Below are positions 4,627 through 60,199 of a stretch of 64,000 nucleotides of DNA, in pieces. The notes beneath the pieces are model-generated. The model had not been told where the DNA came from. It worked only from the letters and a program-made list of their open reading frames with translations, and searched no databases. Both the position numbers and the translations under genes were made by a program. Source of the DNA: an uncultured Acidobacteriaceae bacterium (GTDB lineage: Bacteria > Acidobacteriota > Terriglobia > Terriglobales > Acidobacteriaceae). The stretch spans positions 800,685 through 864,684 of the forward strand of contig CAVYSC010000002.1 of NCBI GenBank assembly GCA_963771135.1, read 5' to 3'. Numbering within the stretch: the stretch's first letter is position 1; the number at the start of each line of letters is the position of its first letter.

Positions 4627-4760
4627 GAGATGTGGTTGTCATCCGGAGCGAAGAGATGTAGTTGTCATCCTGAGCGAAGTTCGCCGCTCGCAGAGCGGCG
4701 AACGAGTCGAAGGACCTGCATTTCAATCGGCAGGGTGCCCCACCTTGCCGCGGTCCCCGG
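4627..4760. repeat. composite intergenic repeat: 2 x 26-bp tandem, 10-bp hairpin, REP half-site
   Basis: gagatgtGgttgtcatccGgagcgaa (4627-4652) / gagatgtAgttgtcatccTgagcgaa (4653-4678). Hairpin ttcgccgctc-gca-gagcggcgaa (4680-4702). Then cgaaggacctgcatttc and gggtgccccacc (4733-). Related copy at 17726-17802. Confidence 0.6.
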
Positions 4761-5624: not shown

Positions 5625-5687
5625 CTGATCACTGACTACTGATCACTGACAACTGACAACTAACAACTGACAACTGTCTACTGTCCC
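5625..5687. repeat. heptanucleotide tandem array (9 units)
   Basis: ctgatca ctgacta ctgatca ctgacaa ctgacaa ctaacaa ctgacaa ctgtcta ctgtccc. Spans the stop of the SpoIIE gene. Confidence 0.85.
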
Positions 5688-7913: not shown

Positions 7914-7991
7914 CAGACTACCCAGCTACCAGCTACCGGCTACGGGCTACCGGCTACCAGCTTCTGACTACGGACTACGGACTACTCCCCC
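7914..7991. repeat. heptanucleotide tandem array (11 units)
   Basis: cagacta cccagcta ccagcta ccggcta cgggcta ccggcta ccagctt ctgacta cggacta cggacta ctccccc. Lies in the divergent region between the SpoIIE and GntR genes. Confidence 0.85.
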
Positions 7992-10120: not shown

Positions 10121-10186
10121 CCGCTGGAAGCTGGCTGCTGGCTACCGACTACTGGCATCTGGCTGCTGGTGGCTGAATCTCTGATA
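10117..10186. repeat. heptanucleotide tandem array (10 units)
   Basis: gtagccg ctggaag ctggctg ctggcta ccgacta ctggcat ctggctg ctggtgg ctgaatc tctgata. Starts at the permease stop codon. Confidence 0.8.
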
Positions 10187-11039: not shown

Positions 11040-11095
11040 CTGATGGCTGGCCGCCGGCTACTGGCCCCGGGCTACCGGCTACTGTCTCCTGTCCC
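11040..11095. repeat. heptanucleotide tandem array (8 units)
   Basis: ctgatgg ctggccg ccggcta ctggccc cgggcta ccggcta ctgtctc ctgtccc. The last codons and the stop of murC (minus strand) lie inside it. Confidence 0.8.
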
Positions 11096-16850: not shown

Positions 16851-17025
16851 CGGGTGCCCCACATCTGCCTGACGTTGGCAGATGTGGGAGAGCATGACCT
16901 CCTGCAGCCTGCTGCGGCACCATTTCGCGGGCGCACACCCCAACGCGCCGGAGGCGCAACGCTGATTAGCCCAGCACTTCAGTGCTGGGAAAGCGGAGAA
17001 AAAAAAGGGAGTCCCGGAGGGAGGA
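16851..17025. repeat. composite ~175-bp two-hairpin intergenic element, copy A
   Basis: cgggtgccccacatctgcc-tgacgtt-ggcagatgtgggag (12-bp perfect stem), then ggcgcaacgctgattagcccagcacttcagtgctgggaaagc (8-bp stem), then gagtcccggaggga. Same order and orientation as 28790-28940. Confidence 0.75.
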
Positions 17026-17947: not shown

Positions 17948-19759
17948 GTGCGCGTCGACTGCTACCCCATCTCGCTGCTGCCCCGGCTCTCGCGGCTCTT
18001 TCTCGACTACACCGCGAGCCACGAGCCCATCGCGCCCTTCTACGCCGCCACTCCCTTCTCCTGGAAGCCCTCCGCGCACAATCCCACTCATCGCGCCGCC
18101 CTCGCCGATCTTCTCCGCGACCAAAACCTCTCGTACGGCGCCGGCGAAAAGACCCTCGCCAACATCGAGAAGCTCCGCAACGGTGCCAGTGCGATCGTCA
18201 CCGGCCAGCAGGTCGCGCTCTTTGGCGGACCCCTCTTCACGCTCTTCAAGGCCGCGACCGCCATCCATCGCGCCCAAAAAATCGATACGGATACCGGGGC
18301 CCCCGGCGAGCTTGCTCGCCGGGGTGGTGGCGCCGTCCCCATCTTCTGGCTCGCCTCGGAAGATCACGACCTCGCCGAAGTCGATCACGTCACGCTGCCC
18401 GCGCGCCACGCCCTGCACACGCTGCGCCTGCATTCTGAAGAACCACATTCCGGCCGCCCCGTCGGCTCCATCCCGCTCGGCCCGCAAATCACCCAGCTTC
18501 TCGACCGCGCCGCGGAGCTCATCGGCGGCACGCCCGAATTCGATCTCCTCGCCGCCGCGTACACGCCCCAGGCCACCTACGCCTCCGCCTTCGCGCGCTG
18601 GCTTTCCGCCGTCTTCGCCGATCACGGCCTCATCGTCCTCGACGCGTCCTCGCGCGCCTTCCACGCACTCGGCGCGCCCGTCCTGCGCCATGCCCTCGAG
18701 CACGCCGCCGACCTCGAAGCCGCCCTGCACCAGCGCGACCGCCTCCTTGCCGAGCGCGGCTACCACTCGCAGGTCCTCGTCGCGCCGGGCAGCAGCCTGC
18801 TCTTCCTCATCGACGAAGCCACCGGCGCGCGCCAACCCCTTCGCCACAAAAACGGCTCGTGGATCGCCACTCACATGGGTGCCCCACCCTTGTCCGCAGG
18901 ACAGGGTGGGATAGAGAAAACTTCGGGTGCCCCACCCTTGTCCGCAGGACAGGGTGGGATAGAGAAAATCTCGGGTGCCCCACCCTTGTCCGCAGGACAG
19001 GGTGGGCCAGAGAAAACCTCGGGTGCCCCACCCTTGTCCGCAGGACAGGGTGGGCCAGAGAAAACCTCCTACTCCACCTCAGATCTCCTCGCCATCCTCG
19101 ACGCCGCCCCCGAGCGCCTCAGCCCCAACGCCCTCCTGCGCCCCGTCTTTCAGGATTACCTGCTGCCCACCGCGGCCTACATCGCCGGCCCCGCGGAGAT
19201 CGCCTACTTCGCGCAGTCGCAGGTGCTCTATCAAGCGATCCTCGGCCGCAGCACGCCCATTCTGCCGCGCCTCAGCGCCACGCTCATTGAGCCGTCCATC
19301 GGCAAAGTCCTCGCCCAGCACGATCTCTCGCTCGCCGACATCCTCTCCGCGCATCCCGACGAGCTGGCCCACCGTCTCGGCGCGCGCGCCCTGCCCGTCG
19401 AAGGCAAGCTACAGCTCGCCGCCACCGGCAACGCGCTCGACGCGGAACTCCAGCAGCTCATCTCCTGGATGGAATCGCTCTCGCCCTCGCTCGGCCGCTC
19501 CGCTCAGGTCTCGGCCTCGAAAATGCGCTATCAGATGAACCGTCTCCGCCGCCTGGCCGCCAACTACCAGCTCCAGCGCGAAGGCAGCATCCGCCGCCAC
19601 GTCGACACGCTCTTCTTCAATCTCTTCCCTGACCGTCACCCGCAGGAGCGCAGCATCGGCGGCGTCGCGTATCTCTCCCGCACCGGATCCCCGCTGCTCT
19701 CGACGCTGATCGACCAATCCGCCGACGACTGCCCCGGCCACAAAGCCATCTGGCTGTGA
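17948..19759 (+). CDS. bshC: bacillithiol biosynthesis cysteine-adding enzyme BshC, carrying a 64-aa repeat insertion
   Basis: VTGQQVALFGGPLFTLFKAATAI, PERLSPNALLRPVFQDYLLPTAAYIAGPAEIAYF. About 600 aa versus my recollection of about 540 aa for BshC; the excess equals the repeat block. Confidence 0.8.
   Translation: MRVDCYPISLLPRLSRLFLDYTASHEPIAPFYAATPFSWKPSAHNPTHRAALADLLRDQNLSYGAGEKTLANIEKLRNGASAIVTGQQVALFGGPLFTLFKAATAIHRAQKIDTDTGAPGELARRGGGAVPIFWLASEDHDLAEVDHVTLPARHALHTLRLHSEEPHSGRPVGSIPLGPQITQLLDRAAELIGGTPEFDLLAAAYTPQATYASAFARWLSAVFADHGLIVLDASSRAFHALGAPVLRHALEHAADLEAALHQRDRLLAERGYHSQVLVAPGSSLLFLIDEATGARQPLRHKNGSWIATHMGAPPLSAGQGGIEKTSGAPPLSAGQGGIEKISGAPPLSAGQGGPEKTSGAPPLSAGQGGPEKTSYSTSDLLAILDAAPERLSPNALLRPVFQDYLLPTAAYIAGPAEIAYFAQSQVLYQAILGRSTPILPRLSATLIEPSIGKVLAQHDLSLADILSAHPDELAHRLGARALPVEGKLQLAATGNALDAELQQLISWMESLSPSLGRSAQVSASKMRYQMNRLRRLAANYQLQREGSIRRHVDTLFFNLFPDRHPQERSIGGVAYLSRTGSPLLSTLIDQSADDCPGHKAIWL
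18878..19069 (+). repeat. 4 x 48-bp perfect-phase tandem of a REP-like hairpin, in frame inside bshC
   Basis: ggtgccccacccttgtccgcaggacagggtggg[at/cc]agagaaaa[ct]ctc[gc] x4, translated as GAPPLSAGQGG(I/P)EK(T/I)S x4. The same hairpin occurs intergenically at 27617 and 27904. Confidence 0.9.
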
Positions 19760-21183: not shown

Positions 21184-21222
21184 GGGTGCCCCACATACGC
21201 CCATGTGTTCGCAGATGTGGGA
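21184..21222. repeat. GGGTGCCCCAC-type REP hairpin (degenerate)
   Basis: gggtgccccacatacgcccatgtgttcgcagatgtgggatc. Confidence 0.5.
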
Positions 21223-21265: not shown

Positions 21266-21349
21266 CTGATCACTGCACGGCGAACACTACCCCTAGCCCG
21301 TAACCCCTAACCCCTATCCCCTGCCCCCTACACCCTACCCCCTGCCCTG
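21266..21349. repeat. heptanucleotide tandem array (12 units, C-rich variant)
   Basis: ctgatca ctgcacg gcgaaca ctacccc tagcccg taacccc taacccc tatcccc tgccccc tacaccc taccccc tgccctg. Confidence 0.8.
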
Positions 21350-26985: not shown

Positions 26986-27318
26986 TCACCCCCCGTCGCA
27001 CCCCAGCGAAAACCGCAGCGCCGCACAAATCTCCCGCATCCGCGCGGAGCTGAGCTGCGCCACCCGCTTGCCCAGATCGTCTCGCCGAACCGTGACCGCG
27101 TTGTGCAGATTCACCGCGCAGCGCGCTTTCATGCCGTCCTCTTCGCCCAGCACAACCTCAGAGGGCACGCCGCGGATCGTCGACGTGACGGGAGCAACGG
27201 TGACCGCGGAAAGATACTCGAGAGCGCTCTCCCGCGTCAGCACCACCACCGGCCGTCTTTTGTCCGGCCGCCCGAAGGAGTACAGCCGAACGTCGCCTCG
27301 TCCTATTCTTCCGGCCAC
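26986..27318 (-). CDS. mazF: MazF/PemK-family endoribonuclease toxin
   Basis: GRGDVRLYSFGRPDKRRPVVVLTRESALEYLSAVTVAPVTSTIRGVPSEVVLG...CAVNLHNAVTVRRDDL. The GTG at 27318 overlaps the antitoxin stop. Confidence 0.8.
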   Translation of the reverse strand: MAGRIGRGDVRLYSFGRPDKRRPVVVLTRESALEYLSAVTVAPVTSTIRGVPSEVVLGEEDGMKARCAVNLHNAVTVRRDDLGKRVAQLSSARMREICAALRFSLGCDGG

Positions 27319-27549
27319 GCCGCCCTCCCGGCCCACAATCTCATTTCTTCCGAGTCCTGCGGCTGCCCGGAGTAGCCCGCACGGTCCCGCTCCTCCAGCG
27401 CGCGGAGTTTCCAGCTTCCGCAAGTGCTCCCGCAGCGCTTCACGCACCAGAGCGGACCGGTTCCGCTTGAGCTTGCGCGCCGCCCGATCCGTAGCCGCCA
27501 GCAGCTTCCGGTCGAGCACTACCTGCACCGTTTCCATCGCTGTTCCCAT
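27303..27549 (-). CDS. ribbon-helix-helix (CopG-like) antitoxin, with one apparent frameshift at the A-run 27408-27410
   Basis: METVQVVLDRKLLAATDRAARKLKRNRSALVREALREHLRKLE, then in the +1 frame LRALEERDRAGYSGQPQDSEEMRLWAGRAAWPEE*. Removing one A from gaaactc restores a normal antitoxin. Confidence 0.7.
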
Positions 27550-27616
27550 TGTCGACTCCACTCCACAGTCTACTCCACAGTGGATGCGGAATCGGTCTTC
27601 TTCCGCTGCCTCCCCC

Positions 27617-27660
27617 GGGTGCCCCACCCTTGTCCGCAGTCTTATCGCGGACAGGGTGGG
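27617..27660. repeat. GGGTGCCCCAC-type REP hairpin
   Basis: gggtgccccacccttgtccgc-agtcttat-cgcggacagggtggg. Confidence 0.7.
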
Positions 27661-27881
27661 CGGAGTCACACCACTCCCGACCTCTATTCCCTATAACCCA
27701 TCCCCTGCTCCGCCCCCCTCACACCGCCGCCGCAATCGCCGCCTCCCGATCCTTCTTCCGCTCCAAAAAGTCGTACCAGCTCTCCCCCTCCTGCGGAGCC
27801 ACCATCTCCGTAACCTTCCCTTCCGTCCGCACCAGCGCCCGATCCCACTGCTCCTTCACCCCGGAAACACCGACCGGTGCA

Positions 27882-28754
27882 TCACCGCCTCCGGCCCAGT
27901 CCCGGGTGCCCCACCCTTGTCCGGGGCCCCCGACGCGCCTGTAGTTGGCGCGACGGGGTGGTTGTCGTCGTTTCAGGCGACAGGGTGGGTCCAGCAGCAG
28001 CCTCTGCGGCAGCCGGCTCGCTGATCGCCGGTTTCTGATCCCCGATCCCTGATCCCTGATCACTGTTTTCCGGCTGCTGGCCGCTGGCCGCTGGCAGCTC
28101 GTCACTCATCCCCGCCTTGCGCAGCGCCTCCTTCCGATCCCACTCCGCGCGGATCACCGCCCTCCTGGCGTCCTCCTCCTCCATCCTCTTGAACTCCTGG
28201 CGGTATTTCTCCGCCCCCTCGTCGATCCCCCGCATCAACTCATCCCACCACGCTCTGGGATTCTCCGCCGCCTTCGGTTCGTCTGCGGCGGACGCAGTTC
28301 CTGCACCCTGCACCGTGGCCCCTGCCCCCTCCTCCATCCTCTCCACGAACCGCCCCATCAGCCCGTCCAGCTTTTCCGCGCCCATCCTCTCCGCCAGCGC
28401 CGCATACCGCAGCGCCGCATTCTGTGTCGCCACGCGCCGATCCAGCCTCCGCTCGGCGTCGCGGCACCCTTCCAGCATCACGCGCCCATTCGCCGGCGGA
28501 ATCGATCCCAGCGCCATCGCCCGCACCGTCTGCGACCGCACAAAGGCGATCGACGCCTCGTCATCCAGCAGCGGAATCGTCAGCGCCATCAGCCCGCTCG
28601 CCTCGCGATACCGCGCGTGCGCGTGGCAACGAGTCTCACCCACCGCAGGAATCCCCCGGCACGGCTCCCCATTCTCCCGCACCACCTCACACCGCCGCCC
28701 CACCACGTGACTCTGCGCTTCCTCCCGCCCGCTCTGCTCTTCCATTTCGCTCAT
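27882..28754 (-). CDS. hypothetical protein; the C-terminal third is encoded by repeat DNA, so the true 3' end is uncertain
   Basis: MSEMEEQSGREEAQSHVVGRRCEVVRENGEPCRGIPAVGETRCHAHARY... (Cys/His cluster, helical charged middle). From about 28111 downstream the frame reads through a heptamer array and a REP element. Confidence 0.45.
   Translation of the reverse strand: MSEMEEQSGREEAQSHVVGRRCEVVRENGEPCRGIPAVGETRCHAHARYREASGLMALTIPLLDDEASIAFVRSQTVRAMALGSIPPANGRVMLEGCRDAERRLDRRVATQNAALRYAALAERMGAEKLDGLMGRFVERMEEGAGATVQGAGTASAADEPKAAENPRAWWDELMRGIDEGAEKYRQEFKRMEEEDARRAVIRAEWDRKEALRKAGMSDELPAASGQQPENSDQGSGIGDQKPAISEPAAAEAAAGPTLSPETTTTTPSRQLQARRGPRTRVGHPGLGRRR
27904..27994. repeat. GGGTGCCCCAC-type REP with an enlarged, internally structured loop
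   Basis: gggtgccccacccttgtccgg...cgcgcc-tgtagtt-ggcgcg...gcgacagggtgggtcc. Confidence 0.6.
28021..28111. repeat. heptanucleotide tandem array (13 units)
   Basis: ctgatcg ccggttt ctgatcc ccgatcc ctgatcc ctgatca ctgtttt ccggctg ctggccg ctggccg ctggcag ctcgtca ctcatcc. Confidence 0.8.
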
Positions 28755-28789: not shown

Positions 28790-28940
28790 CGGGTGCCCCA
28801 CATCTGCCCGAAGTTGGCAGATCTGGGAGGCCACTGCTCCATCCCCGGCGTAACTCCCCGCGCCGAAGGCGCAACGCTGACTAGCCCAGCACTTCAGTGC
28901 TGGGAAAGCTCGCATGAAAACTCGAGTCCCGGAGGGACGG
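28790..28940. repeat. composite two-hairpin intergenic element, copy B
   Basis: cgggtgccccacatctgcc-cgaagtt-ggcagatctgggag, then ggcgcaacgctgactagcccagcacttcagtgctgggaaagc, then gagtcccggaggga. Compare 16851-17025. Confidence 0.75.
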
Positions 28941-34807: not shown

Positions 34808-34866
34808 CCAGGGATCAGTAGTCAGGGATCAGGGATCAGGGGTCAGGGGTGTCAGTGATCAGGGTC
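34808..34866. repeat. heptanucleotide tandem array (8 units)
   Basis: ccaggga tcagtag tcaggga tcaggga tcagggg tcagggg tgtcagtga tcagggt. Confidence 0.8.
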
Positions 34867-49229: not shown

Positions 49230-49274
49230 GGGGCAGGAGTCAGGAGACAGGAGTCCGTAGTCCGTGATCAGGGG
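49230..49274. repeat. heptanucleotide tandem array (6 units)
   Basis: ggggcag gagtcag gagacag gagtccg tagtccg tgatcag. Confidence 0.7.
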
Positions 49275-53260: not shown

Positions 53261-53337
53261 GGAGACGGGAGACGGGAGACAGGAGTCGGTAGCCGGTAGC
53301 CGGTAGCCGGTAGCTGGTAGCCGGTGATCAGAAGCCA
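53261..53337. repeat. heptanucleotide tandem array (11 units)
   Basis: ggagacg ggagacg ggagaca ggagtcg gtagccg gtagccg gtagccg gtagctg gtagccg gtgatca gaagcca. Lies just downstream of the argJ stop. Confidence 0.85.
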
Positions 53338-55416: not shown

Positions 55417-55469
55417 GCGGTGATCAGTTGTCAGTGATCAGTTGTCAGTGATCAGTGGTCTGTTTCAGC
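55414..55469. repeat. heptanucleotide tandem array (8 units)
   Basis: taggcgg tgatcag ttgtcag tgatcag ttgtcag tgatcag tggtctg tttcagc. Begins with the gene's own TAG. Confidence 0.85.
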
Positions 55470-56808: not shown

Positions 56809-56835
56809 CTGCGGACAAGGGTGGGGCACCCAGCT
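56809..56835. repeat. REP half-site (reverse orientation)
   Basis: gctgcggacaagggtggggcacccagc is the reverse complement of gggtgccccacccttgtccgcagc. Confidence 0.55.
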
Positions 56836-58724: not shown

Positions 58725-58771
58725 GGCGGGGATCAGTGGTCAGTGATCAGTTGTCAGTTGTCAGTGATCAG
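58722..58771. repeat. heptanucleotide tandem array (7 units)
   Basis: taaggcg gggatcag tggtcag tgatcag ttgtcag ttgtcag tgatcag. Begins with the thiG TAA. Confidence 0.85.
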
Positions 58772-59387: not shown

Positions 59388-60098
59388 ATGCGGATCCGCC
59401 ATGTTCCCACGCTCCTGGCCGTCGCGCTGGCTGCCGGCACCCTGGCCGCGCAGTCACGGCCGACGAGCCCCGCGCAGGCACAGCTTTCCGACCTTACCGT
59501 GGGGTCGGGCCGCATCGTGTATACGTTCGATCAGCCGGAACTGCAGCCGCCCCACTACACGATCACGATTGAAGAGAATGGCCTGGGGCGTTTTGTGTCG
59601 AAAGCCGGCGCTCCACCCTCCGATGGGAGCGACGACGTGTATCCGGCGCCAATGGACCGCGAAATTCGCGTGGATCCGGGACTGCTCGCGGATCTTTTTC
59701 GCTATGCGAGGGCGCACGAGTACTTCAACGAAGACTGCAACCGCAGCGGGCGGCGGGCGTTTACGGGCAATAAGACGATCACGTACGTTGGGCCGGATGG
59801 CCGCGGGTCGTGCGCGTTTGTGTGGGCGTCCGATGCCGAGTTGCAGCAGCTGTCGGACCGGTTGAACGCGGTCGCGTTCACGCTGGAGATCGGGCGGCGG
59901 CTGGACGTGGAAGTGCACCACTATCCGCTGGGCCTGGACGCGGAGCTGGAGTCGCTGCAAAACGCGATCAAGGAGCAGCAAGCGTCGGACTTGCCGAATA
60001 TCGCGCCGGAGTTGCAGTACATCGCCTCCGATCAGGACGTGATGGACCGGGTGCGGCGGCGCGCGCTGGCGCTGCTGTCGGGAGCGAGGAGCCAGTAG
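59388..60098 (+). CDS. hypothetical exported protein
   Basis: Signal peptide MRIRHVPTLLAVALAAGTLAAQS. ATG lies 3 nt after the ruvC stop. No family recognised. Confidence 0.5.
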   Translation: MRIRHVPTLLAVALAAGTLAAQSRPTSPAQAQLSDLTVGSGRIVYTFDQPELQPPHYTITIEENGLGRFVSKAGAPPSDGSDDVYPAPMDREIRVDPGLLADLFRYARAHEYFNEDCNRSGRRAFTGNKTITYVGPDGRGSCAFVWASDAELQQLSDRLNAVAFTLEIGRRLDVEVHHYPLGLDAELESLQNAIKEQQASDLPNIAPELQYIASDQDVMDRVRRRALALLSGARSQ

Positions 60099-60199
60099 CC
60101 AGTAGCCGGTAGCCGGTGGCCAGTAGCCGGGAGCCGGTAGGCGGTGGCCAGTAGTCAGTAGCCGGTAGCCAGCAGCCGGTGATCAGGAGTCCGGAGTCG
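60088..60199. repeat. heptanucleotide tandem array (16 units, the largest in the window)
   Basis: ggagcca gtagcca gtagccg gtagccg gtggcca gtagccg ggagccg gtaggcg gtggcca gtagtca gtagccg gtagcca gcagccg gtgatca ggagtcc ggagtcg. The upstream gene's TAG lies in unit 2. Confidence 0.9.

Follow-up and report, generated by a model that had tools for sequence, protein, structure and literature searches.

Short palindromic repeats inside protein-coding genes are reportedly a feature of Rickettsia, where Ogata et al. are said to have described the Rickettsia palindromic elements (RPEs) under the titles 'Selfish DNA in protein-coding genes of Rickettsia' and 'Protein coding palindromes are a unique but recurrent feature in Rickettsia'. 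RPEs are approximately 100-150 bp long. [quoted passage not shown] Repetitive extragenic palindromes (REPs) have been found inside open reading frames (ORFs) of several species, including clusters encoding 43-82 amino acids in Thauera and R. conorii, and Acidobacteria harbor a sharply defined group of transposases, 'TIRYT', that resemble the REP-associated tyrosine transposases (RAYTs) (Di Nocera et al. 2013, PMC3733652). Acidobacteria also possess class 3 TnpA-Y1 genes flanked by atypical hairpins (Quentin et al. 2018, PMC6006769). Here we describe a 33-bp hairpin element in the bshC gene of an uncultured Acidobacteriaceae bacterium (GenBank assembly GCA_963771135.1, contig CAVYSC010000002.1, positions 800,685 to 864,684 of the forward strand), where it forms part of a tandem array that lengthens the encoded BshC, the cysteine-adding enzyme of bacillithiol biosynthesis, by 64 residues. 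The whole 64,000-nt stretch is referred to as the window; P and L numbers designate homologous proteins and fetched loci, respectively.

The bshC coding sequence occupies positions 17948-19759 of the plus strand (603 amino acids, with a GTG start according to the ORF tool) and contains, at 18878-19069 (+), four head-to-tail 48-bp units that add residues 311-374. The first base of the array is a codon boundary, and the frame reads through without a stop: the translation is ...HKNGSWIATHM-[GAPPLSAGQGG(I/P)EK(T/I)S]x4-YSTSDLLAILDAAPERLSPNALLRP or, unit by unit, ...RHKNGSWIATHM, then GAPPLSAGQGGIEKTS, GAPPLSAGQGGIEKIS, GAPPLSAGQGGPEKTS and again GAPPLSAGQGGPEKTS, then YSTSDLLAILDAAPERLSPNALLRP. 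The codon directly 3' of the hairpin is ATA in units 1-2 and CCA in units 3-4. Tandem Repeats Finder places the array at 18877-19068 (period 48, 4.0 copies, 96% matches, zero indels, score 342), by far the strongest tandem array of the window. The 28-nt hairpin core CCCACCCTTGTCCGCAGGACAGGGTGGG has four exact occurrences, at 18883, 18931, 18979 and 19027, as opposed to 0 expected from 100 shuffles. A CRISPR array, in which non-coding repeats of 23-50 nt alternate with unique spacers of comparable length, could be ruled out, as the 15-nt spacers are near-identical to each other and to the flank and the array lies within an ORF under purifying selection. A protein-database search with the 64-residue insert gave no match at E<=10 among 1825 word-sharing candidates, the repetitive low-complexity query having probably been down-weighted.

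Comparison with orthologous genes, for which bshC DNA was fetched and lined up codon by codon at 12 loci, reveals the composition of the unit. Its mobile part comprises 33 bp, GGTGCCCCACCCTTGTCCGCAGGACAGGGTGGG, or 11 codons (GAPPLSAGQGG). Single-copy bshC genes have the form W-(F/I/T)T(T/P)H-x-[GGT GCC CCA CCC TTG TCC GCA GGA CAG GGT GGG]-(S/L)A-K-T-(T/S)-Y, in which the 33-nt element adjoins native codons directly (SAKTT or LAKTS). In the window, the 15 nt on the 3' side of each hairpin (xxx GAG AAA AyC TCG) are a copy of the native bshC flank. On the plus strand, element copy 1 (18878-18910) is followed by spacer 1 (ATAGAGAAAACTTCG, IEKTS, 18911-18925), a duplicate of native downstream codons, copy 2 (18926-18958) by spacer 2 (ATAGAGAAAATCTCG, IEKIS, 18959-18973), copy 3 (18974-19006) by spacer 3 (CCAGAGAAAACCTCG, PEKTS, 19007-19021), and copy 4 (19022-19054) by the native-type downstream flank (CCAGAGAAAACCTCC, PEKTS, 19055-19069), the likely template of the spacers, which is identical to spacer 3 at 14/15 positions and homologous to the SAKTT/LAKTS stretch of single-copy genes. 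A scan with the 18-nt head of the element, covering one genome per species, returned at least 112 stretches; the bshC 15-nt tail stands next to none of the other 33-nt copies among them, whose 3' flanks are unrelated to it. On the 5' side, a five-codon extension of the loop (I/F-T/A-T/P-H/S-x; in the window I-A-T-H-M, 18863-18877, plus strand) precedes the element in all element-bearing alleles and is absent from the short W-QAG-K alleles. Because the 48-bp unit thus consists of the element plus five host codons, the array points to one insertion and subsequent local tandem duplication instead of four insertions.

The preliminary description of this locus, made from the letters of the window, had reported four tandem in-frame 48-bp hairpin copies in bshC that contain no stop and add 64 amino acids, and had taken the substitutions separating copies 1-2 from copies 3-4 as a sign of stepwise duplication. 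The repeat search, the ORF and a match to TIGR03998 bear out the former, and the order ATA, ATA, CCA, CCA fits a history in which two units would have diverged and each was then duplicated. Its 48-bp element, however, has to be reduced to 33 bp, the remaining 15 bp being duplicated native bshC codons. Likewise, what it saw as the expansion of a palindromic element is, as far as can be read from the array itself, ordinary local tandem duplication and not an activity of the element.

Copy number at this site varies among relatives. Across 120 aligned BshC homologues, a short turn with the sequence ...RRKNGSW(L/F)AGK(T)QYST... is the widespread state of the loop. In the clade of the window protein, seven homologues (P0005-8 and P0011-13) have no unit and read W-QAG-K, three (P0002, P0004, P0014) have one unit, P0001 has two, P0003 has approximately three with internal in-frame deletions, and P0018 has four. 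The latter is encoded at locus L004 (NCBI GCA_049581605.1, contig JBAUSG010000106.1), a separate metagenome-assembled genome, 99% identical. Its array lies inside the contig, with unique sequence on both sides, and carries three private substitutions, all of them in spacers; an independent assembly with four units argues against an assembly artefact. With 0, 1, 2, ~3 and 4 units at one codon position in orthologues that are 80-99% identical, the locus behaves as a coding variable-number tandem repeat (VNTR). P0010 contains a strongly diverged copy of the element, and P0009 (L123) retains only CCG GGT GGA AAA GAA AAG, which by its sequence is probably the footprint left when the hairpin was deleted between the two GGTG copies (GGTG...GGTG, a direct repeat) of the element. 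When metagenomes were scanned for the junction between two units, the sole match was the L002 contig, itself bshC, so multi-unit arrays appear to be rare.

The host gene still looks like a functional bshC. Its product matches TIGR03998 over the full length (386 bits versus a cut-off of 266) as well as PF10079 and PF24850, has the N-terminal Rossmann-like and the C-terminal coiled-coil domain of BshC, and keeps every invariant column of the 120-sequence alignment. The dN/dS ratio lies between 0.09 and 0.26 for all pairs, including 0.148 for L002 and L005, both of which carry the insert; bshC therefore remains under purifying selection. AlphaFold2 (mean pLDDT of the model 76) renders residues 314-367 as coil with pLDDT <50 between strands 304-308 and 372-375, with flanks at pLDDT >=90. 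The best PDB match of the model is 4WBD, BshC of B. subtilis (E = 7e-25, TM 0.72), and by sequence the insert maps between residues 303 and 316 of 4WBD. The length of this loop is variable in many lineages that lack any element. The insert is thus predicted by the model to be a disordered surface excursion at the tip of a beta-hairpin. The preliminary description had looked to orthologues for confirmation of a surface loop or linker and to reads or related strains for copy-number variation, and had held that homologous non-repetitive sequence in relatives would speak against an insertion. The alignment, the mapping to 4WBD and the model all place the insert in a variable surface loop, close orthologues are either empty or have fewer copies, and the relatives range from 0 to 4 units, with a second assembly also at four, so the finding stands up to these checks.

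The hairpin belongs to a dispersed family. The 33-nt form folds into a 12-pair stem with one bulge and a 3-nt loop, and thus has the shape expected of a REP (an imperfect palindrome of 20-40 bp that forms a stem-loop), with a folding energy of about -20.7 kcal/mol for the RNA and -11.8 kcal/mol (z = -3.5) for the DNA; the whole bshC array folds at z = -5.4. The 33-mer is free of stops in all six frames. The head, GGTGCCCCACCCTTGTC, has 7 matches in the window, as opposed to 0.25 expected, at four loci. Besides bshC, these are a 43-nt form with the same arms and a 9-nt loop (27618-27660, plus strand), a long form of ~84 nt with the same head and tail and an internal segment of ~54 nt (27905-27989, plus strand), and a degenerate copy in which only the head remains and the 3' arm has decayed to AATAAGGTGAG (56814-56830, minus strand). 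Both dispersed copies that had been noted earlier, at 27617 and 27904, are indeed present, each shifted by one base, and the head at 56830-56814 (-) is additional. Among the stretches returned by the scan, all copies with a matching 3' arm come from Acidobacteriota (Acidobacteriaceae, Terriglobales, Korobacteraceae and 'Sulfotelmatobacter'); in the few head matches from other phyla the second arm is missing, and these were set aside as chance. Copies fall into length classes of 33, 41 and 45 nt, the last being followed by GATTTTGACTTTC, and the identical 33-mer occurs at 12 or more non-bshC sites. In all copies the foot is conserved, with (Y)GGGTGCCCCAC and GTGGG at opposite ends. Family members have in common the foot GGTGCCCCAC...GTGGG and differ in the upper stem and loop. 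Most copies in the fetched loci have no spanning ORF, which is compatible with the intergenic REP-like hairpin of the preliminary description.

Copies that lie in frame within other conserved genes are common in this group. A copy was counted as in frame when an open frame spanned the element with coding-type GC content at third codon positions on both sides; Pfam domains on both sides were then confirmed for one representative per family (two for ribonucleotide reductase). In class II ribonucleotide reductase (L046, L048) the element occupies the linker that joins the barrel domain to the TSCPD domain; in the queuine tRNA-ribosyltransferase Tgt (L093) it interrupts the TGT match; and in the methionine synthase MetH (L019) it separates the homocysteine-methyltransferase domain from the pterin-binding one. 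Further copies lie in a flavin amine oxidase (45-nt class; L090 together with L038, L071 and L110, which were assigned by similar flanking sequence only), in a GFO/IDH/MocA oxidoreductase (L115) and, in antisense orientation, in ComEC (L016). The sense frame GAPPLS is used in six of the seven gene families, BshC included. The presence of in-frame copies is apparently general in Acidobacteriaceae and not peculiar to bshC, and the word 'unusual' that had been applied to the bshC case was too strong: there are at least six other conserved gene families with such copies, and precedents exist among the RPEs and REPs.

We consider a single in-frame insertion of the 33-bp element, followed by tandem duplication of a 48-bp segment to four units within a tolerated, disordered loop of BshC, to be the most plausible history of the locus, with a probability of roughly 0.8. 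The imperfect palindrome would have inserted at the tip of the BshC beta-hairpin loop in the ancestor or the gene pool of one Acidobacteriaceae sub-clade. The length of the element, a multiple of three, its stop-free frames and the small flexible residues that it encodes (GAPPLSAGQGG) explain why the gene stayed open. Later, the element and the next five native codons would have been duplicated in tandem, probably via replication slippage or unequal recombination between units, to give first two units that diverged (ATA versus CCA) and then, by duplication of each, four. BshC would thereby have gained a disordered surface loop of 64 residues, presumably tolerated rather than useful.

Several observations weigh against this history. 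The count of four units in the window is that of the assembly, and the BshC with the 64-residue insert is a putatively active enzyme. A regular-expression scan for the HUH...Y motif of Y1 transposases in all ORFs of the window and of 124 loci (~1 Mb), which is a crude motif test, gave no matches; as no transposase or other mobilizing function was found, insertion is deduced only from presence or absence of the element and from family membership. The gene trees (neighbor-joining bootstraps with the insert masked) are likewise at odds with a single simple insertion, as neither the element-bearing nor the empty alleles were ever recovered as monophyletic. The window gene and the empty P0005 are sisters in 82/100 protein and 166/200 DNA replicates, falling to only 53/200 at third positions; P0001 and P0004 group with the empty P0011 (91/100 protein, 198/200 DNA), and P0014 groups with P0017 (98/100 protein, 193-200/200 DNA). 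Finally, the element of the window and that of L006 show 0/33 differences at a gene p-distance of 0.176 (binomial P ~0.002), whereas 10 of the adjacent 30 nt are changed. The hairpin is more conserved than a neutral loop would be expected to be, which hints at constraint or homogenization at the level of DNA or RNA. In the lineage of L002 and L005 the stems are decaying, with 2-4/33 changes at a gene p-distance of 0.052. Where conservation is strict, its cause may be gene conversion by copies elsewhere in the genome, re-insertion, or structural selection.

The interleaving of presence and absence can be narrowed down further. All empty alleles of the core clade share CAG GCC GGS AAA, a single-substitution variant of CTG GCC GGA AAA, the ancestral short loop, and all element-bearing alleles share the five-codon extension, so that each class looks homologous by descent. 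Derivation of the 'QAG' alleles by deletion of the insert was rejected, as it would need two deletions and three substitutions instead of one substitution, and independent gain in each lineage was judged unlikely in view of the homologous extension in all element-bearing alleles. Judging from these codons, short-tract recombination between lineages appears likelier than repeated independent gain; repeated loss is a possible further source of the pattern.

Of the competing accounts, the one that deserves most attention holds that the hairpins are maintained in bshC, either for a role at the DNA or RNA level (mRNA stabilization or processing, ribosome or polymerase pausing, antisense termination, a protein-binding site) or as a selected protein loop, their sequence being kept by selection or by gene conversion with other copies in the genome as donors. 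It would account for the unchanged element in lineages whose bshC differ by 17.6% and adjacent loop codons by ~33%, for the fact that all three differences between the arrays of the window and L004 fall in spacers and none in the 132 nt of hairpin, and for the prevalence of the GAPPLS frame; moreover, effects of REPs on mRNA stability and termination have been reported (PMC3733652), and the unit junctions are terminator-like on the minus strand. By the scan, GGGTGGGGCACCC followed by GA(G/A)(G/A)TTTTCT occurs there at 18925-18937, 18973-18985 and 19021-19033, and the region has four such sites, as opposed to 1.3 expected. Nevertheless, the closest relatives manage without the insert (P0005 is 92% identical), the stems decay in the L002/L005 lineage, the copy of P0010 has strongly diverged and that of P0009 has lost its hairpin, and the host genes and insertion positions are mutually unrelated. 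The bias in frame is explained equally well by purifying selection against frames rich in Cys, Trp or Arg. Maintenance of the hairpins is therefore, in our estimate, rather unlikely.

Much less probable is an assembly artefact, in which a repeat of really one or two units would have been inflated or mis-joined by short-read assembly. A block of 192 bp made of near-identical 48-bp units is of a size prone to miscounting, and the exact BshC protein of the window is on record nowhere else. Against this stand the L004 genome, with four units in the same order, its own three substitutions and unique flanks, the distinguishable units (ATA/CCA; ACT/ATC/ACC), the preserved reading frame, and the independent occurrence of two and ~3 units with the same 48-bp period in related genomes. 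Lowest of all we rank four separate insertions of a 48-bp mobile unit beside itself by self-targeting. REP-type elements are often clustered, and regular spacing of the present element is seen elsewhere (three copies ~163 bp apart in L035 and three ~180 bp apart in L111), but the 15-bp part is attached to no other 33-nt copy in the 112 loci and is nearly identical to native downstream codons, which in single-copy orthologues come immediately after the 33-bp element; besides, the only metagenome contig with the unit junction is bshC itself.

A wider reading is possible yet doubtful: the element may belong to an undescribed hairpin superfamily of Acidobacteriaceae (foot GGTGCCCCAC...GTGGG, with interchangeable upper stems) that gene conversion, re-insertion or structural selection at the DNA or RNA level actively keeps at its consensus even in housekeeping genes, with the BshC loop as a recurrent target or an exchanged allele. 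Under this reading, the BshC loop would carry the present family in one clade and GGTGCCCCATTCAAGCC...GGCTTGAGTGGG in another, the states being interleaved on the gene tree. If true, this would be a free-living, phylum-wide counterpart of the 'coding palindromes' of Rickettsia, with an ongoing homogenization mechanism open to study.

Other repeats of the window and of the fetched loci were recorded alongside. A sister family with the same foot (GGTGCCCCAC...GTGGGA) and another upper stem, ATCTGCC/GGCAGAT, is present in the window at 16853-16888, 21185-21221 and 28792-28827 (+), with the sequence GGTGCCCCACATCTGCC...GGCAGATGTGGGA, and has a degenerate relative at 4734; comparison of the two sequences suggests a superfamily with a constant foot and interchangeable stems. 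A third family, GGTGCCCCATTCAAGCC...GGCTTGAGTGGG, occurs twice in the same BshC loop of P0019 (L008, 2067-3863), where it is translated as GAPFKPSFGLSGQ, and different hairpin elements are found in this loop in P0052, P0055, P0079, P0015, P0040 and P0050 as well. The BshC loop is either a recurrent target or else the only tolerated site. The ComEC/Rec2 gene of L016 appears to encode several different hairpin-derived peptides, SHPVRQIQADKGGAP and HPAKPTTGFSGTPGWGTQIGWGTR, and to have SSHPVAPRAGATRVGHP just upstream of its likely start codon; the sequence thus indicates multiple probable insertions in and near one gene. The long form at 27905-27989 (GGTGCCCCACCCTTGTCCGGGGCCCCCGACGCGCCTGTAGTTGGCGCGACGGGGTGG...) has a near-identical counterpart in frame in the MetH of L019 (GAPPLSGAHGAPVVGATGWDFHP) and appears to combine two hairpins, one nested in the other. 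Long direct repeats embed the element in L035 (5885-6228, ~163-bp period) and L111 (7284-7681, ~180-bp period), with three copies each, and identical element flanks occur at 679 and 1422 of L022 (0.7 kb apart) and at 369 and 3447 of L064 (3 kb apart), so the element also travels within, or seeds, larger repeats.

The 43-nt copy at 27618-27660 falls within the first 17 codons of an ORF on the minus strand (26986-27669) that matches RHH_1 (CopG-type antitoxin) at residues 48-84 and the PemK/MazF toxin at residues 124-221; the copy is probably upstream of the true start of this RHH/MazF gene. Heptanucleotide tandem arrays (3-12 copies) are also unusually numerous in the window, most of them without a spanning ORF; they lie at 5631-5683, 7916-7985, 10123-10169, 11047-11082, 21289-21347, 28035-28099, 28300-28330, 34809-34848, 49234-49255, 53261-53325, 55420-55460, 58733-58771 and 60079-60180. 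In L048, the class II ribonucleotide reductase includes two in-frame translations of a heptamer of this same type ('DNRQLTTDN'), and L046 has it too.

The array has several practical consequences. Inserts of this kind add to protein lengths, interrupt domain hits and disrupt assembly from short reads. The added aspect at the present locus is tandem amplification, which has produced a 64-residue insert in an enzyme of redox metabolism, and the natural series of 0-4 units can serve for testing how far an enzyme tolerates a disordered loop. Should gene conversion or targeted re-insertion be the cause, the strict conservation and the interleaved presence and absence would inform on the persistence of small repeats inside genes.

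Among the described systems, the array is akin to the coding minisatellites (VNTRs): its units repeat in frame, their number differs among close relatives (0-4 here), and slippage or unequal recombination would be expected to alter it. The array differs from them in that the unit was seeded by a mobile hairpin, not by native coding sequence, and that the host is a housekeeping enzyme, not a surface protein. MITEs, too, are small non-autonomous repeats with inverted-repeat ends that may lie in genes and add coding sequence (Delihas 2008, PMC2229807; reviewed in PMC10969869), but the 33-nt form is too short for a MITE, consists of a single stem-loop, and shows no consistent duplication flanking its copies. 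The ~84-nt form at 27905 has MITE-like proportions, and no target duplication was seen there. The TIRYT and class 3 TnpA-Y1 HUH enzymes come from the same phylum, are RAYT-like and are flanked by 'atypical secondary structures' that are possibly multi-copy (PMC3733652, PMC6006769). The present element matches neither of the motifs published for them (GGGGWSAS; foot CnGA); by analogy they are the obvious candidate mobilizers, as a lead rather than a result. In Rfam, no family matched the element: the only hits were sub-threshold models of miRNA hairpins (20-27 bits versus gathering cut-offs of 78-90), which we take as chance, and the sequence GGTGCCCCACCC appears in no paper of the literature searched.

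The closest parallels are with REPs and RPEs. Like REPs, the element is an imperfect palindrome of 20-40 bp with a conserved foot, has several families per genome, and appears to be mostly extragenic with a minority of copies wholly within ORFs; however, its foot is GGTG(CCCCAC) and not the GTAG (GT[AG]G) or CGTC tag of the two described superfamilies, and the crude motif scan of the window and 124 loci found no RAYT or REPtron near any copy examined. Like RPEs, it forms dispersed palindromes that lie between genes and in frame in unrelated conserved genes, which stay open, in tolerated surface regions (PMC3733652, PMC2229807); in-frame copies in open conserved genes are known here from seven families. 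RPEs are not known outside Rickettsia, bear no sequence resemblance to the present element and exceed its length of 33-45 nt. The latter resides in Acidobacteriaceae that live free in soil, and its bshC copy has, along with adjoining host codons, undergone tandem amplification. The element thus behaves like a REP or an RPE but matches neither in sequence, and in-frame palindromes, which are textbook knowledge for Rickettsia and sporadic among REPs, are apparently common in the abundant Acidobacteriaceae of soil and peat.

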